Shown here piece after piece: positions 10,726 through 18,199 of a DNA stretch of 23,550 bases. Position 1 is the first letter of the stretch, and every line of letters starts with the position of its first letter. The DNA comes from a virus (Duplodnaviria; Heunggongvirae; Uroviricota; Caudoviricetes): IMG/VR virus record IMGVR_UViG_2718218360_000001. One strand, 5' to 3'. The notes beneath the pieces were generated by a model that did no database searches, had not been told where the DNA came from, and saw only the letters and a list, made by a program, of their open reading frames with translations. Made by a program: the position numbers and the translations under genes.

Positions 10726-11387
10726 ATATCTACGAAAGAATTGATGGCAGCAAATACCGAAATATTTGGGTAGTTGGCGATCTGCACGGATGCTACACGA
10801 ACCTGATGAAAAAACTGGAGACGATAGGATTCGACACCAAAAAAGACCTGCTTATCTCGGTGGGCGATTTGGTTGATCGCGGTACAGAGAACGTAGAATG
10901 CCTGGAATTAATCACATTCCCCTGGTTCAGAGCTGTACGTGGAAACCATGAGCAAATGATGATTGATGGCTTATCAGAGCGTGGAAACGTCAATCACTGG
11001 CTGCTTAATGGCGGTGGCTGGTTCTTTAATCTCGATTACGACAAAGAAATTCTGGCTAAAGCTCTTGCCCATAAAGCAGATGAACTTCCGTTAATCATCG
11101 AACTGGTGAGTAAAGGAAAAAAATATGTCATCTGCCACGCCGATTATCCTTGTGATAAATACGAGTTTGGAAAGCCAGTTGATCATCAGCAGGTAATCTG
11201 GAACCGCGAACGAATCAGCAACTCACAAGACGGGATCGTGAAAGAAATCAAAGGCGCGGACACGTTCATCTTTGGTCATACGCCAGCAGTGAAACCACTC
11301 AAATTTGCCAACCAGATGTATATCGATACTGGCGCAGTGTTCTGCGGAAACCTCACATTGATTCAGGTACAGGGAGAAGGCGCATGA
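10722..11387 (+). CDS. Lambda-type Ser/Thr protein phosphatase (221 aa, metallophosphoesterase)
   Basis: GDLHG, GDLVDRG, GNHE motifs; near-identical in recalled sequence to the lambda phosphatase; ATGA overlap with ninG. Confidence 0.9.
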
Positions 11388-12007
11388 GACTCGAAAGCGT
11401 AGCTAAATTTCATTCGCCAAAAAGCCCGATGATGAGCGACTCACCACGGGCCACGGCTTCTGACTCTCTTTCCGGTACTGATGTGATGGCTGCTATGGGG
11501 ATGGCGCAATCACAAGCCGGATTCGGAATGGCTGTATTCTGTGGTAAGCACGAACTCAGCCAGAACGACAAACAAAAGGCTATCAACTATCTGATGCAAT
11601 TTGCACACAAGGTATCGGGGAAATACCGTGGCGTGGCAAAGCTTGAAGGAAATACTAAGGCAAAGGTACTGCAAGTGCTCGCAACATTCGCTTATGCGGA
11701 TTATTGCCGTAGTGCCGCTACGCCGGGCGCAAGATGCAGAGATTGCCACGGTACAGGCCGTGCGGTTGATATAGCCAAAACAGAGCAGTGGGGGATAGTT
11801 GCTGAGAAAGAGTGCGGAAGATGTAAAGGCGTCGGTTATTCAAGAATGCCAGCAAGCGCCGCATATCGCGCTGTGACGATGCTAATCCCAAACCTTACCC
11901 AACCCACCTGGTCACGCACTGTTAAGCCGCTGTATGACGCTCTGGTTGTGCAATGCCACAAGGAAGAGTCAATCGCAGACAACATTTTGAATGCGATCAC
12001 ACGTTAG
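11384..12007 (+). CDS. Q: Late-gene antiterminator Q (lambda Q type)
   Basis: Translation [50 protein letters not shown]... matches lambda Q as I recall it, including the zinc-binding CRDCHG...CGRCKG. Confidence 0.9.
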
Positions 12008-12049
12008 CGCCATGATTGCCACGGATGGCAACATATTAACGGCATAATA

Positions 12050-12083
12050 TTGACTTTTTGAATAACTTTGGGGAAACTTGACA
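12050..12083 (+). promoter_or_regulatory. pR'-like late promoter and probable Q-utilisation region
   Basis: TTGACT (12050-12055), 17-bp spacer, GAAACT, then TTGACACCAATAATGGG; resembles lambda pR' (TTGACT...TAAATTTGACTCAACGATGGG) from memory and sits about 45 bp after the Q stop. Confidence 0.4.
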
Positions 12084-12244
12084 CCAATAATGGGCGTTTT
12101 TTACATGTCATTGATGAGTCTCAATAACCTGCCGCCGAGTAGTTTTTATGCTCTGAATTGTATTTGTGTAGTAAACATGCTGACTGCAATGTAATAGAGT
12201 TTTTTTAGCCTGTAACCTCTTGACGGCATTGAATTGCTTTTGTT

Positions 12245-13003
12245 ATGAGTTGTAAGCCAATGTTATCATCTTGTATTGGGGTGGTTATGAAGGATGGTGC
12301 GCTGCTCAGGAGTTCTTCACTTTTTATTGCCTACATGGGATGCCTTGGATGGGGGAGTGCTTATTTCTATGGATGGGGTACTTCTTTTTACTACGGCTTC
12401 CCATGGTGGATTGTAGGTGCAGGTGTTGATGATGTTGCCAGAAGTTTATTTTTTGCAGTTATCGTCATTGCTATATTTCTTATCGGTTGGGGTATTGGTG
12501 TTGTATTCTTTTTCGCAGTGAAAAGAAAACATTCTATGCAAGAGCTAAATGTATTTCGCCTTTATTTTGCTGTGGAATTATTGTTTGTGCCGGCAATTAT
12601 TGAGTTTTCTATATTGAGACAGAAGATTCAGGTACCTCTTTTGCTACTGTCAGCAGCGATTGCGCTGGCGGTCACAATTTCGATAAGATCTTATGGGCGA
12701 TTTTTATCGGTATCATGCTTCTATGATAAGCCATTTATAAAAAAACATTTTTTTGAGATTGTGATGATTGCTTTTGTGGCATATTTCTGGCTTTTTTCAT
12801 TTCTGACAGGATATTACAAACCGCAGTTTAAGAAAGAATATGAAATGATTAATTATAATGATGGTTGGTATTATGTTCTTGCTCGTTATGATAATTGTCT
12901 GGTTTTGTCTACTTCTTTCAATGCAGGTAGTAAAAGGTTTGTGATTTATCAATCAGCACAAGATAAGAATCTTCAGGTTGATATTGTAAGGACCAGAATT
13001 TAA
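12245..13003 (+). CDS. Hypothetical polytopic membrane protein (about 5 predicted TM segments plus a C-terminal soluble domain); late-operon moron
   Basis: AT-rich ORF between Q/pR' and the esterase gene. Hydrophobic stretches WWIVGAGV..., LFFAVIVIAIFLIGWGIGVVFFFAV, FAVELLFVPAIIEF, VPLLLLSAAIALAVTISI, FFEIVMIAFVAYFWLFSFLTGYY. No family recognised. Start codon uncertain (12245, 12260 or 12287). Confidence 0.6.
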   Translation: MSCKPMLSSCIGVVMKDGALLRSSSLFIAYMGCLGWGSAYFYGWGTSFYYGFPWWIVGAGVDDVARSLFFAVIVIAIFLIGWGIGVVFFFAVKRKHSMQELNVFRLYFAVELLFVPAIIEFSILRQKIQVPLLLLSAAIALAVTISIRSYGRFLSVSCFYDKPFIKKHFFEIVMIAFVAYFWLFSFLTGYYKPQFKKEYEMINYNDGWYYVLARYDNCLVLSTSFNAGSKRFVIYQSAQDKNLQVDIVRTRI

Positions 13004-13422
13004 TTGGCTGCATAAATAATATTTTAAGTTGCAAGTTGGCTATTCGTAGGAATAGAACCTTAGGCATGCTGAATGCGTTTTCTGAACATTGTTTTATAAA
13101 CTGTGTCTGCTTGCTGTTGTGATCCTGCTTTTAGTGATGGTGATGATGGATTTCACCAGCAGGATAATGTTGGTACTGACTGATGGCGCTCTGGTCTGCG
13201 GCATTGTGGTATTGCTGTGGCCGGTGATAAAAAGAAACAGCCTGCATAATGCTTGATTTTTTTGTTTACTGTTTATTAAAAATACTACTGCATGGTGAAT
13301 CCCCCTGTGCGGAGGGGCAATCAGCAACCAGGTATATGTGATAATCGCGGATTCAGGTGCTGATACTGAATTCACCGGGAGGCACCCGGCACCATGCAAG
13401 AAAAAGAATGTGCATGCAAACA

Positions 13423-13448
13423 TGCCCCTCTCCGGAGGGGCATTTTTT
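13423..13448 (+). terminator. Rho-independent terminator (stem TGCCCCTC/GAGGGGCA, loop TCCG, then TTTTTT)
   Basis: Read directly; a second hairpin CCCCT-GTGCGG-AGGGG lies at about 13305-13320, and a minus-oriented hairpin TGCCCGAA/TTCGGGCA at about 13461-13480. Confidence 0.5.
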
Positions 13449-13574
13449 ATGGGTAAAAAATGCCCGAATGGGTTCGGGCAATAGCATGAGATACTGATAT
13501 TGTTGTGTTGTTATCGTGTGGATTTTAACCAGGGTTTATCAGGCTGCGCAACTGCGTGGTCTTTTTTCATTTCT

Positions 13575-13663: not shown

Positions 13664-15517
13664 ATGACATTTAAACATTATGATGTTGTCAGGGCGGCGT
13701 CGCCGTCAGACCTTGCGGAAAAGCTGACACACAAACTGAAAGAGGGCTGGCAGCCGTTTGGTAGTCCGGTGGCCATAACCCCTTATACCCTGATGCAGGT
13801 GATTACAGCAGAAGGTGATGTGGTGGTCAGTGGTGCAACTGAGCCGGATTGGTACTACGTCATCGTACTGGCCGGGCAGTCCAATGCCATGGCTTACGGT
13901 GAAGGGCTTCCGCTGCCGGATTCATACGATGCTCCGGATCCGCGCATTAAACAGCTGGCGCGCCGCAGTACAGTTACGCCGGGTGGGGCTGCCTGCAGAT
14001 ATAACGATATTATTCCGGCCGACCACTGCCTGCATGATGTGCAGGATATGAGTACGCTGAATCATCCGAAGGCAGACCTGAGCAAAGGGCAGTACGGCTG
14101 TGTCGGCCAGGGCTTACATATTGCCAAAAAACTGCTTCCGTATATCCCGAATAACGCGGGGATCCTGCTGGTACCATGCTGTCGTGGTGGTTCGGCATTC
14201 ACCCAGGGCGCGGAGGGGACATTCAGTGCGGACGCGGGGGCCAGCCAGGATTCGGCGCGCTGGGGTGTGGGTAAACCGTTATATCAGGACCTGATTGCGC
14301 GCACTAAAGCTGCATTACAGAAGAACCCGAAAAATGTGTTGCTGGCGGTGTGCTGGATGCAGGGAGAGTTTGACATGAGCGCCGCCACCCACGCACAGCA
14401 ACCTGCGCTGTTTACAGCCATGCTGGCACAGTTTCGTGCTGACCTCTCCGTGTTTAACGCGCAGTGCCATGGTGGCAGTGCTGCAGATGTGCCGTGGATT
14501 TGTGGTGACACGACGTATTACTGGAAAAATACCTACGGCACCCAGTACAACACCATTTACGGGGCGTACAAAAACAGGGAGAGTGAGGGCGTTTATTTTG
14601 TGCCCTTCATGACAGACGGTAACGGCGTCAATACCGCCACTAACGCGCCGGCAGAAGATCCGGATATTCCGGCATCAGGATATTACGGTGCGGCATCGAG
14701 AACGAATGGAAACCAGGTATCATCAAACCGCCCGACACATTTCAGTTCATGGGCGCGCAGGAGCATTATTCCGGATCGTATGGCAACCGCTATTCTGAAC
14801 GCAGCCGGGCGCACCTCAGCCTTCATCAGTGGTAAGGCACCGGAAATCAAACCCTCGCCCGGCGGCAACACGCCATCGGGTCCGTCTGCAGATACGTCCG
14901 TTCGCACAATCTCCCTGCTGCCGGCAGCCGGAGAGGCTGCTGCGCAGGGCTGGAGCATTAAGGATGGCGGAATTCAGTTGTCAGATGGTGTATTTAAGAT
15001 CACCAGGCAGAGCAATAAAACCTGGTCCCTGACGCATCCGGTGGATGACGCAATTACCCTGCTGACACAGGGCGGCAGACTGACCTGTAAGTTCCGCCTG
15101 TCAGGCGCACTGACCAACAATCAGTTCGGGCTGGGGATTTATCTGTATACGGATGCTCCCGTTCCTGATGGTGTGGCGATGACGGGTACCGGTAATCCGT
15201 TCCTGATGTCGTACTTCACTCAGACCACTGACGGCAGAGTGAATCTGATGCATCACAGGAAAGCCGGAAACACGAAGCTGGGGGAGTTCGGCGATTACGG
15301 TAACGACTGGCAGACGCTGGAGCTGGTGTTCACCGCCGGCAGTGCCACGGTTACTCCGAAACTGAATGGAGTGGCTGGCCCGGCATTCCAGGTTATAAAA
15401 GACAGTATGACACTGGGACTGAATGCGCTGACGCTGACGGATGTTACAAAAAATGCAGCGTATGGCGTTGAGATAGAAAGTCTGGTGCTGGAGATAAATG
15501 CACCGGCATCATCATAA
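13664..15517 (+). CDS. Prophage-encoded sialate O-acetylesterase of the NanS-p type (N-terminal DUF1737-like region, SGNH/SASA esterase, C-terminal extension)
   Basis: GGGAGG then ATG. N-terminus [33 protein letters not shown]; esterase motif [14 protein letters not shown]; 617 aa; position between Q and the lysis genes as in Stx-type lambdoid phages. Confidence 0.8.
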
Positions 15518-15666: not shown

Positions 15667-15882
15667 ATGTACCAGATGGAAAAAATCACAACGGGTGTGT
15701 CATACACCACGTCAGCGGTGGGGACGGGATACTGGTTACTGCAGCTGCTGGACAAAGTCTCTCCGTCCCAGTGGGTGGCGATAGGCGTGCTGGGGAGTCT
15801 GCTGTTTGGGCTGCTGACATATCTGACGAACCTGTATTTCAAGATTAAAGAAGACCGGCGTAAGGCGGCGCGGGGAGAGTAA
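15667..15882 (+). CDS. Class II holin / pinholin of the phage 21 S type, with dual-start motif MYQM
   Basis: [71 protein letters not shown] closely resembles S21 from memory; two Met codons three residues apart. Confidence 0.8.
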
Positions 15883-16281: not shown

Positions 16282-16495
16282 ATGAACGCAAAAATCAGAT
16301 ACGGCCTGTCGGCTGCCGTTCTGGCGCTGATTGGTGCAGGGGCGTCTGCGCCTGAAATCCTCGACCAGTTTCTGGATGAAAAGGAAGGTAACCACACCAC
16401 AGCATACCGTGATGGTGCGGGTATCTGGACCATCTGCCGTGGAGCCACCCGGGTGGATGGTAAGCCTGTGATTCCTGGCATGAAGCTGTCGAAGG
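16282..16495 (+). pseudogene. SAR endolysin (phage lysozyme), truncated after about 71 codons by an IS66-family insertion
   Basis: N-terminal Gly/Ala-rich SAR segment (LSAAVLALIGAGASA) and catalytic region EGNHTTAYRDGAGIWTICRG. The reading frame runs into the IS terminus GTAAGCG at 16496 and stops at 16512. Confidence 0.7.
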
Positions 16496-16587
16496 GTAAG
16501 CGTACAGCCTGAACCGTCTGGTCAGAATCTGACGAATTAGACAAAGTGGTGTCCACCAAATAAGTAGTGGGAACCAAAGTATCAGAT

Positions 16588-16968
16588 ATGCAGAAAAATG
16601 TGACTCCCGGCAGGCGAAAAGGCTGCCCTAATTATCCTCCCGAATTTAAACAGCAGCTCGTTGCTGCCTCCTGTGAACCCGGGATATCCATCTCAAAACT
16701 TGCTCTTGAAAATGGCATTAACGCCAATCTGTTGTTCAAATGGCGACAACAATGGCGCGAGGGAAAGCTGCTATTACCTTCTTCAGAGAGCCCCCAGCTA
16801 CTTCCTGTGACTCTCGATGCAGCTGCCGAACAGCCAGAATCGCTCGCAGAGGACCCGGAAACCCTCAGTATCAGCTGTGAGGTAACGTTCCGGCACGGGA
16901 CGCTCCGCTTCAATGGCAATGTCAGCGAAAAGCTCCTGACTCTGCTGATACAGGAACTGAAGCGATGA
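16588..16968 (+). CDS. IS66-family accessory protein (Orf1/TnpA-like)
   Basis: MQKNVTPGRRKGCPNYPPEFKQQLVAASCEPGISISKLALENGINANLLFKWRQQWREG... typical IS66 orf1. Confidence 0.8.
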   Translation: MQKNVTPGRRKGCPNYPPEFKQQLVAASCEPGISISKLALENGINANLLFKWRQQWREGKLLLPSSESPQLLPVTLDAAAEQPESLAEDPETLSISCEVTFRHGTLRFNGNVSEKLLTLLIQELKR

Positions 16969-17312
16969 TCCCGTTACCTTCCGGGACCAAAATTTGGCTG
17001 GTTGCCGGTATCACCGATATGAGAAATGGCTTCAACGGCCTGGCTGCGAAAGTACAAACGGCGCTGAAAGACGATCCCATGTCCGGCCATGTTTTCATTT
17101 TCCGGGGCCGCAGCGGCAGTCAGGTTAAACTGCTGTGGTCCACCGGTGACGGACTGTGCCTCCTGACCAAACGGCTGGAGCGTGGGCGCTTCGCCTGGCC
17201 GTCAGCCCGTGATGGCAAAGTGTTCCTTACGCAGGCGCAGCTGGCGATGCTGCTGGAAGGTATCGACTGGCGACAGCCTAAGCGGCTGCTGACCTCCCTG
17301 ACCATGCTGTAA
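16965..17312 (+). CDS. IS66-family Orf2 (TnpB-like)
   Basis: MIPLPSGTKIWLVAGITDMRNGFNGLAAKVQ...; ATGA overlap with orf1. Confidence 0.85.
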   Translation: MIPLPSGTKIWLVAGITDMRNGFNGLAAKVQTALKDDPMSGHVFIFRGRSGSQVKLLWSTGDGLCLLTKRLERGRFAWPSARDGKVFLTQAQLAMLLEGIDWRQPKRLLTSLTML

Positions 17313-17361
17313 ATCTCTTTATCCTGGTTGTCACAGAATAAGCCCGGTAAAATACGGGCTT

Positions 17362-17928
17362 ATGAACGACATCTCTTCTGACGACATCTTCCTGCTGAAA
17401 CAGCGCCTGGCCGAACAGGAAGCGCTGATCCACGCCCTGCAGGAAAAGCTGAGCAACCGGGAGCGCGAAATAGACCATCTGCAGGCGCAGCTGGATAAAC
17501 TCCGCCGGATGAACTTCGGCAGTCGTTCCGAAAAAGTCTCCCGCCGTATCGCACAAATGGAAGCCGATCTGAACCGGCTTCAGAAAGAGAGCGATACGCT
17601 GACTGGTAGGGTGTATGACCCGGCAGTACAGCGTCCGTTGCGTCAGACCCGCACCCGTAAGCCGTTCCCTGAATCACTACCCCGTGACGAAAAGCGACTG
17701 TTGCCTGCGGCGCCGTGCTGCCCGAACTGCGGCGGTTCACTGAGCTATCTGGGCGAGGATACCGCCGATGGCGCACTCATCACCGGACTGACCTTTCTTG
17801 CCCCCAAAGATGCCACACGGGTTCAGGGTTTTTTTCAGCATTTGCAGGTCAGGTTTGGTGACGGGCCGTGGCAGGATGTTAAGGGGCTGGATGAAGTGGG
17901 CAGTGATACAGGCAGAACAGGAGAATGA
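17362..17928 (+). pseudogene. IS66-family transposase, N-terminal fragment only
   Basis: N-terminal leucine-zipper and CxxC zinc-finger region (CCPNCGGSLSYLGED) present; the DDE catalytic core is absent and the C-terminal about 55 residues are unrelated read-through. Confidence 0.7.
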
Positions 17929-17929
17929 C

Positions 17930-18199
17930 ATGAATATACTAAAAAAACTTATGCAGCGTCTGTGCGGTTGCGGAAAGCATGATGACCGTGAACACGGGGA
18001 GTTACTTACAGCACAGCTGCGACTGGGGCCGGCAGACATCCTGGAGTCAGATGAGAATGGCATTATCCCGGAGCAGGCCAGGGTAATCACGCAGGTGGTG
18101 ATACTGGATGCGGATAAAAAGCAGATACAGTGCGTGGTAAGACCGCTGCAAATCCTGCGTGCTGACGGGACGTGGGAAAATATTGGCGGGATGAAGTAA
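17930..18199 (+). CDS. Hypothetical 89-aa protein
   Basis: AGGAGA then ATG 17930; followed by a terminator. Not recognised. Confidence 0.4.
   Translation: MNILKKLMQRLCGCGKHDDREHGELLTAQLRLGPADILESDENGIIPEQARVITQVVILDADKKQIQCVVRPLQILRADGTWENIGGMK

Follow-up and report, generated by a model that had tools for sequence, protein, structure and literature searches.

A TfpB/STM1630-family gene for a predicted inner-membrane protein as AT-rich cargo in the late region of the degraded Escherichia coli O157:H7 prophage Sp17

Salmonella Typhimurium STM1630 is a gene of undescribed function that is bound by H-NS and expressed in Salmonella pathogenicity island 2 (SPI-2)-inducing medium and in macrophages (Canals et al., PMC6785131 Text S1), and it is among the genes that depend for expression on regulators needed for systemic virulence (PMC2639726). 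It is absent from S. Typhi and silenced in sequence type ST313 by two single-nucleotide polymorphisms in its -10 box (PMC6785131 Text S1); mutants were attenuated in calves and chickens (PMC6785131 Text S1, citing Morgan 2004), and deletion in strain 4/74 gave more intramacrophage replication (PMC6785131 Text S1). Lambdoid prophages of E. coli provide a second point of reference, as convergent small RNAs (sRNAs) have been described at the moron site of their late region, including EcOnc01b/AgvB in prophage Sp17 (Tree et al. 2014, PMC4104026), and fitness in bovine rectal mucus was reduced when both AgvB copies were lost (Tree et al., PMC4104026). Here we describe a relative of STM1630 at this very site, in a 23,550-nucleotide (nt) stretch of viral DNA (IMG/VR record IMGVR_UViG_2718218360_000001, hereafter the window), where the gene lies at 12287..13003 on the plus strand and encodes a predicted inner-membrane protein of 238 amino acids (aa), as judged from alignments, a family match and substitution rates.

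Over its 23.5 kb the window is 100% identical to E. coli O157:H7 chromosomes, and it is Sp17 of strain Sakai. Asadulghani et al. scored the repressor, replication, lysis and morphogenesis functions of Sp17 as missing; its excision, amplification and packaging were not found, and it was reported as non-inducible (PMC2669165). Between the lambda-type antiterminator gene Q with its late promoter pR' and the esterase gene of this degraded prophage, we found a single-gene, AT-rich cargo module, or moron. The module is an insertion between conserved backbone genes (Q and nanS-p), it is absent at the corresponding lambda site, and its GC content is atypical; candidate signals of its own are a conserved promoter-like motif and a strong terminator (13422-13443), the latter belonging also to an STnc100-like sRNA. 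The original prediction, made by reading the DNA, had placed an unrecognised membrane-protein moron in the slot that holds stx in Stx-converting phages, and same-slot comparison bears out the placement, with a 68%-identical relative at exactly the place of stx in a late region of the 933W type.

The open reading frame (ORF) that had been proposed in the late operon is real, with an uninterrupted plus-strand frame at 12245..13003 and purifying selection acting on it. Its length of 252 aa holds when counted from the first ATG, but the gene almost certainly starts at ATG 12287, giving a product of 238 aa and not 252, because aligned homologues without an N-terminal extension or frameshift begin at the equivalent of this codon (MKDGALL...). 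Full-length homologues are mostly 236-240 aa (108 homologues), and GGGGTGG precedes ATG 12287; RefSeq and the annotators of phage 434 chose a start at ATG 12260, and the phage 2B8 record uses 12287. As had been noted, the gene is AT-rich, with 36.5% GC for the cargo gene itself and 34-40% across the ORF, compared with 50-56% in Q and the esterase gene on its flanks. Comparison with six relatives (from an enterotoxigenic E. coli (ETEC) plasmid, Salmonella, Citrobacter, an stx-slot prophage, a uropathogenic E. coli (UPEC) island and Shigella pINV) gave ratios of nonsynonymous to synonymous substitution rates (dN/dS) of 0.09-0.20 with saturated synonymous sites, which shows that the gene is intact, selectively maintained and no chance ORF. 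The original prediction had named a non-expressed remnant as one outcome that would overturn it, and the heavy degradation of the surrounding prophage and the many truncated copies elsewhere could suggest a non-functional ORF in decaying DNA. The intact frame, which matches at 100% identity that of phage 434, a viable phage, the low dN/dS at saturated dS and the conservation across four bacterial families make such a remnant very improbable.

No family had been recognised for the protein at first, a statement that does not survive database comparison. PF27470, whose family name is TfpB, is precomputed for 108 of 108 homologues in a large protein database, and one PF27470 entry (247 aa) is 100% identical over the full 238-aa query; in addition, RefSeq names some E. 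coli relatives 'STM1630 family protein', PHROG 1521 ('unknown function') matched at E 2e-154, and phage 434 carries its own annotation of the gene. A Pfam-A scan with a local copy that does not hold the PF27470 model returned no match, and an NCBIfam scan returned nothing beyond a CrgA match at an E-value of 0.46. Using a profile of 42 family members, no PDB sequence was matched at E up to 10, and a Pfam scan of all 42 gave scattered single matches only. Profiles of the enterobacterial members and of those from Moraxella, Pasteurellaceae and Neisseria aligned in HHalign with a probability of 100% (E 6e-42), while individual identities were 27% between the window protein and M. bovis TfpB (E 5e-23) and 46% with Salmonella STM1630. 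We identified the Salmonella homologue as STM1630 from a published deletion primer that encodes its N-terminus, NSSMLLAYLGGLGWG, and from its being a 717-bp gene adjoining sseJ. The family-model match, the full-length homology to the namesakes and a shared architecture (about 240 aa, with a polytopic N-terminal region that bears an AY.YGWG...YG.PWW motif, and a short beta domain at the C-terminus) make it well supported that the gene belongs to the already curated family TfpB/STM1630 (PF27470), whose function is undescribed, and that it is already annotated in O157 genomes and phage 434.

The family is small. An exhaustive profile search of 1.84 billion representatives gave just 70 matches, and the members assignable from this search and a genome scan fall into Enterobacteriaceae, Pasteurellaceae (Mannheimia, Avibacterium, Gallibacterium, Actinobacillus, Aggregatibacter, Glaesserella, H. 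ducreyi and Pasteurella), Neisseriaceae (Neisseria and Conchiformibius) and Moraxella; across both searches the family was met in animal-associated Proteobacteria only. Of 5426 complete E. coli genomes, 1196 (about a fifth) carry a match, and O157 has a second copy, which may be incomplete. The only phage carriers are 434 (100% identical) and 2B8 (97.9%), amounting to 3 records among 50,697 phage records.

Structure prediction by AlphaFold2 (AF2) from 50 enterobacterial sequences only was too weak for use (predicted local distance difference test, pLDDT, of 59.9), and adding distant relatives raised pLDDT to 78.9 with a predicted template modelling score of 0.71. The resulting model has helices at residues 6-36, 47-78, 89-111, 116-136 and 155-181, followed by five beta strands at 184-235 that form a C-terminal domain of about 55 residues, in keeping with the polytopic protein with a soluble C-terminal domain that had been proposed from the sequence. 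The first helix is aromatic- and glycine-rich and highly conserved (GWGSAYFYGWGxSFYYGFPWW), and an acidic loop follows it. We predict five transmembrane helices in an N-in/C-out arrangement, with the acidic loop, the aromatic/glycine-rich segment and the beta domain in the periplasm, because lysine and arginine are in excess in loops 79-90 (family-wide net charge +1.9) and 135-156 (+2.3 to +2.9) and loop 37-50 is acidic. Fold searches with the model found no significant match to any solved structure, toxins included, and no significant structural similarity to MscS-like mechanosensitive channels, which also combine transmembrane helices with a beta domain. This bears on whether the gene could be a toxin-like cargo in the manner of stx, harmful to the bacterial cell or to a eukaryotic host on induction, as its position could suggest, with one relative in the exact stx slot and another beside eltAB on ETEC plasmids. 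A toxin is highly improbable for a polytopic membrane protein without sequence or fold match to solved structures, the more so as Salmonella tolerates its expression and grows unchanged on its deletion, and as several genera have it as a conserved gene of the chromosome.

The transcription signals ahead of the gene were compared with those of lambda (44489-44819). From the end of Q through pR' the window is nearly identical to lambda, and the predicted late promoter pR' (12050..12086, plus strand) has its -35 element TTGACT at 12050-55, a Q-binding region, its -10 element GAAACT at 12073-78 and a predicted +1 near 12086. Homology stops about 10 nt past +1, where lambda continues with 6S/tR'/orf-64 and the window has neither the 6S RNA nor the tR' sequence. 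Past pR' lies a decayed remnant of the phage 434 terminator (12126..12147, plus strand), which reads AAACCCGCTGCCGAGTGGGTTTTTTTT in phage 434 and, with a 4-nt deletion, AACCTGCCGCCGAGTAG----TTTTT in the window and in phage 2B8, and whose best hairpin in the window reaches only -4 kcal/mol. No good terminator was found between pR' and the cargo genes; the first strong one past pR' is an intrinsic hairpin with T6 at 13422-13443 on the plus strand (-17 kcal/mol), at the end of the STnc100-like sRNA, and a second terminator-like hairpin precedes the esterase gene (13541..13562, plus strand). In lambda and Stx phages, the activity of pR' is constitutive (PMC7547250); as no good terminator comes before the gene here, the gene pair in the slot may be transcribed from pR' without Q. 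A candidate promoter of the gene's own, called from its motif only, lies at 12220..12249 on the plus strand, with TTGACG (12220-25), an 18-nt spacer and an extended -10 of TGt TATGAG. The combination of TTGACG and TGn-TATnnn recurs upstream of the gene in the ETEC plasmid and the stx-slot prophage, and Citrobacter has TTGATT; a promoter scan flagged another site, TTGTTA-18-TATCAT at 12240-12269. On these signals, transcription of the cargo gene in the lysogen is plausible.

High-level expression through Q antitermination on induction, as put forward in the original prediction, fits this copy poorly. Sp17 was reported as non-inducible (PMC2669165), and for a prophage without excision, amplification or packaging, high induction-driven expression is not to be assumed; dependence on Q is likewise put in doubt by the apparent lack of a good terminator from pR' to the gene and by relatives outside phages that have the same promoter-like motif. 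A further reading takes the gene as a late accessory of lysis or virion release, transcribed only via Q antitermination and acting with holin and endolysin or with the esterase. Its position in the late operon, past pR' and ahead of the lysis cassette, would suit such a role, and the good terminator that precedes the gene in phage 434 points to Q dependence there. Similarity to a known lysis or holin gene, a finding against which the original prediction had staked its claim, was not found, since Pfam and PHROG searches showed no similarity to holins, antiholins or spanins. Most family members lie outside phages with no lysis genes nearby, phage 434B has replaced the whole region and still grows (PMC9119081), and in Sp17 the endolysin is truncated while the cargo gene is intact. 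We consider a lysis accessory improbable on these grounds, though less so than a toxin.

The genomic contexts of the relatives are diverse, and many lie near virulence genes. In the 933W-type late region that holds the 68%-identical relative, the order is Q, methylase, tRNA-Met, tRNA-Lys, STnc100-like sRNA, tfpB, lpxR and iraM (both on the minus strand), nanS-p, DUF1378, DUF826 and holin; a neighbour labelled 'PmrD' is IraM. The relatives on ETEC plasmids adjoin eltAB and estB, the Citrobacter rodentium relative adjoins a split lpxR, and the Salmonella relative adjoins sseJ. There are relatives on UPEC islands, in one strain near pap genes, and strain CFT073 has a pseudogenised copy near iro genes. 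Shigella pINV copies were found in 106 plasmid records from S. flexneri, sonnei, boydii and dysenteriae, and the copy on S. flexneri pWR501 (6001-6717 of its locus) is 57% identical and surrounded by insertion sequence (IS) fragments. In Avibacterium and in one Logan contig, the gene has been inserted by itself between housekeeping genes and has no conserved neighbours. The M. bovis member lies between two inverted pilin gene ends (18-1883 of its locus), and that of M. lacunata, with an ORF shortened to 195 aa, has a pilin gene and an IS110-type recombinase next to it (3309-6530 of its locus). We take this Moraxella locus to be the pilin inversion region that gave tfpB its name, and expression of the Moraxella member is probably phase-variable with pilin inversion. 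No partner gene is conserved across these contexts, so that the protein probably works by itself or together with core components of the host. Adjacency of tfpB and lpxR recurs in three arrangements, in phage 434, in Citrobacter and in stx-slot prophages (some also with iraM), at positions 5001-7505 of loci L011-L014, 810-1769 of L001 and 3863-4823 of L010.

Taken together, the reading we favour, though the case for it is evenly balanced, is that the gene encodes a lysogenic-conversion envelope protein that is made in the lysogen, active on the periplasmic side of the inner membrane and involved in host colonisation. Expression in the lysogen is suggested because tR' is absent, the phage 434 terminator has decayed, the promoter-like motif is conserved outside phages and Sp17 is non-inducible; a role in host interaction is suggested because relatives lie near virulence genes, because the family was found in animal-associated hosts only, and because of the data on STM1630. 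The product would be made in the lysogen and would not be a late Q-dependent product, its transcripts arising from its own element at 12220-12249 and/or from pR', with no good terminator met before 13422-13443. It would then act alone at the periplasmic face of the inner membrane and, by analogy with STM1630, modulate behaviour inside the animal host, namely mucosal or intestinal colonisation, and it would not kill or lyse cells or poison the host.

Several points weigh against this proposal of a colonisation factor made in the lysogen. The phenotypes in Salmonella are modest and partly inconsistent, with no effect in strain D23580 (PMC6785131 Text S1), and a STM1630 deletion was hypermotile in one screen only. 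The linkage with virulence genes and lpxR could be due to hitch-hiking on mobile, AT-rich DNA; because the cassette is rare, the tfpB-lpxR-iraM arrangement being present in just 2/5426 complete E. coli genomes, we did not accept a functional link between tfpB and lpxR. For the Sp17 copy, we infer both the gene's own promoter and the read-through from pR'; the -10 element of the window pR', GAAACT, is weaker than the TAAATT of lambda, and Rho-dependent termination between pR' and the gene is possible. A lysine-rich stretch after helix 5 is in mild conflict with a periplasmic C-terminal domain, and neither the family alignment nor the fold searches brought out invariant polar or catalytic residues or a known fold. 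A bolder version of the proposal, which we hold only tentatively and regard as unlikely, is that the family is a new class of inner-membrane factor with no known fold, confined to Proteobacteria associated with animal mucosae and disseminated by phages, plasmids and islands. Such a factor would remodel or sense the envelope at the periplasmic face during colonisation, for instance by gating the remodelling of outer-membrane lipid A via LpxR, and here it would be produced constitutively from an unterminated pR', having replaced 6S/tR'.

The cargo gene is not alone in the slot, so that the original description of a slot holding a membrane-protein gene is right but incomplete. Downstream of it, a 55-aa DUF3927/TciB-like small hydrophobic protein is encoded at 13089..13256 on the plus strand (PHROG 1470, E 2.7e-19; RefSeq 'DUF3927 family protein'), PHROG 1470 being labelled 'TciB-like inhibition of cell division or resistance to colicin'. 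A TciB-like gene also lies 3' of tfpB in phages 434 and 2B8 and is absent from most other tfpB contexts; a 41-aa ORF 3' of Salmonella STM1630 was considered as TciB-like and rejected on comparison. Our search of the literature on TciA/TciB and on tfpB in Moraxella found nothing relevant. With this neighbour, a prophage moron for a predicted inner-membrane protein that may be expressed in the lysogen could serve in superinfection exclusion or anti-phage defence, blocking DNA entry or triggering abortive infection, perhaps together with the TciB-like protein, and the frequent pseudogenised or truncated copies fit fluctuating selection. The original prediction had likewise pointed to toxins, exclusion factors or defence genes as typical of the site, a suggestion that gained no support from the fold searches or from PADLOC, in which 0 families matched the cargo protein or the TciB-like neighbour at E up to 1. 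Furthermore, the TciB-like partner is missing from most contexts, just two phages (the 3 records given above) carry the gene, the Avibacterium gene is stably chromosomal among housekeeping genes, and in Salmonella the gene is expressed under SPI-2-inducing conditions and in macrophages. Exclusion is thus possible but unlikely, albeit the most serious competitor of the colonisation-related envelope protein that we favour.

Beyond these two genes, the slot holds two sRNAs as a convergent pair between the cargo genes and the esterase gene. A member of the STnc100 family lies at 13264..13454 on the plus strand (Rfam RF02076, 144.7 bits versus a gathering score of 47), and the Sp17 copy of the anti-GcvB sRNA AgvB at 13455..13516 on the minus strand (RF02702, 96.5 bits versus a gathering score of 56). 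We considered the STnc100-like sRNA as a 3'-untranslated-region product tied to tfpB and rejected this, as it lies upstream of tfpB in stx-slot prophages; its absence at the 434, ETEC, Salmonella and Citrobacter loci also speaks against such a tie. There are no tRNA genes in the Sp17 copy of the slot.

The backbone on which the cargo sits is as originally described, running from Q and pR' to esterase and holin. Q lies at 11384..12007 on the plus strand (PF03589, E 4e-58) and is 98% identical to lambda Q over 207 aa, the NanS-p-type sialate O-acetylesterase gene at 13664..15517 on the plus strand comprises DUF1737, SASA and DUF6645 domains, and a class II holin gene at 15667-15882 is followed by a YdfR/DUF1327 gene. 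RefSeq annotates, in order along the prophage, two tyrosine recombinases, scars of IS30 and IS1203, genes for an HNH endonuclease, NinG, a phosphatase and Q, the cargo gene, the DUF3927 gene, esterase, holin, YdfR, a truncated endolysin, IS66 tnpA/tnpB, tail-fibre fragments, NleG', EspW, NleG, EspM2, DinI, ssrA and smpB. The endolysin gene is cut by the IS66-family tnpA/tnpB (16282-18199), after which come C-terminal tail-fibre fragments, nleG', espW, nleG and espM2, and ECs3485-3488 (EspM2, NleG8-2, EspW and NleG6-3') have been placed in Sp17 (PMC5931665). At the left end (1-3858), three consecutive overlapping recombinase-like ORFs, given in RefSeq as two tyrosine recombinases and a frameshifted DNA-binding protein, fit the reported tandem Sp17a/Sp17b structure. 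A perfect GCCAGA array of 30.7 copies (6488-6671) lies inside a 432-aa hypothetical ORF (5469-6767) and would, by its reading frame, encode a long Pro-Glu dipeptide repeat, and a perfect TATTTC microsatellite of 8.8 copies (9326-9378) lies within the stretch of IS scars that precedes the HNH endonuclease gene. That endonuclease gene (9492-10139, plus strand; weak AP2-domain match) stands between the IS scars and ninG, and a gene for a BamE-domain outer-membrane lipoprotein is present in the prophage remnant at about 6783-7085 on the minus strand.

The window itself adds little to the catalogue of genes, as this one is already annotated in O157 and phage 434 and its family is curated. What may merit some attention is that a protein without a match to any known fold is carried by about one-fifth of complete E. 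coli genomes and is present on pINV and ETEC toxin plasmids, within an effector islet of Salmonella and at the pilin switch of Moraxella. A role as a colonisation or envelope factor, if true, would give a reason why unrelated mobile elements keep the gene, and the apparent lack of a terminator after pR' would be a simple route for a defective prophage to express its cargo without induction.

Among the closest known systems, STM1630 (SL1344_1560, between steB and sseJ) has the same size of 238 aa, the same architecture and AT-richness and 46% full-length identity, and it likewise stands by itself, next to virulence genes, in DNA acquired horizontally. Unlike the O157 gene, STM1630 is chromosomal and outside any prophage late operon; it is silenced by H-NS, and a promoter of its own has been mapped about 200 nt or more upstream (PMC6785131 Text S1). 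Whole-length homology, the N-terminal aromatic motif and the C-terminal beta domain are shared with TfpB of Moraxella bovis and M. lacunata, the namesake of PF27470, although the Moraxella gene lies inside an invertible pilin segment; to our knowledge, the function of Moraxella TfpB is not established either. In phage 434 (CPT_434_68, 'putative membrane protein', OL657226) and in phage 2B8 the gene occupies the same slot with the TciB-like gene next to it, but 434 differs from Sp17 in its Q82-type Q, in the intact terminator upstream of the gene, in having lpxR upstream of Q and an extra small membrane-protein gene, and in being a viable phage and not a remnant. Finally, the lambdoid morons between pR' and the lysis genes (stx1/stx2 and the convergent sRNAs AsxR/AgvB) differ in that the Sp17 cargo is a membrane protein as opposed to the secreted AB5 toxin of the stx morons, and in that it comes here without tRNA genes and without tR' ahead of it. 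The insertion site and the atypical composition are the same, and the lambdoid morons and the Sp17 copy alike sit in a slot that has a terminator and two convergent sRNAs (PMC4104026).

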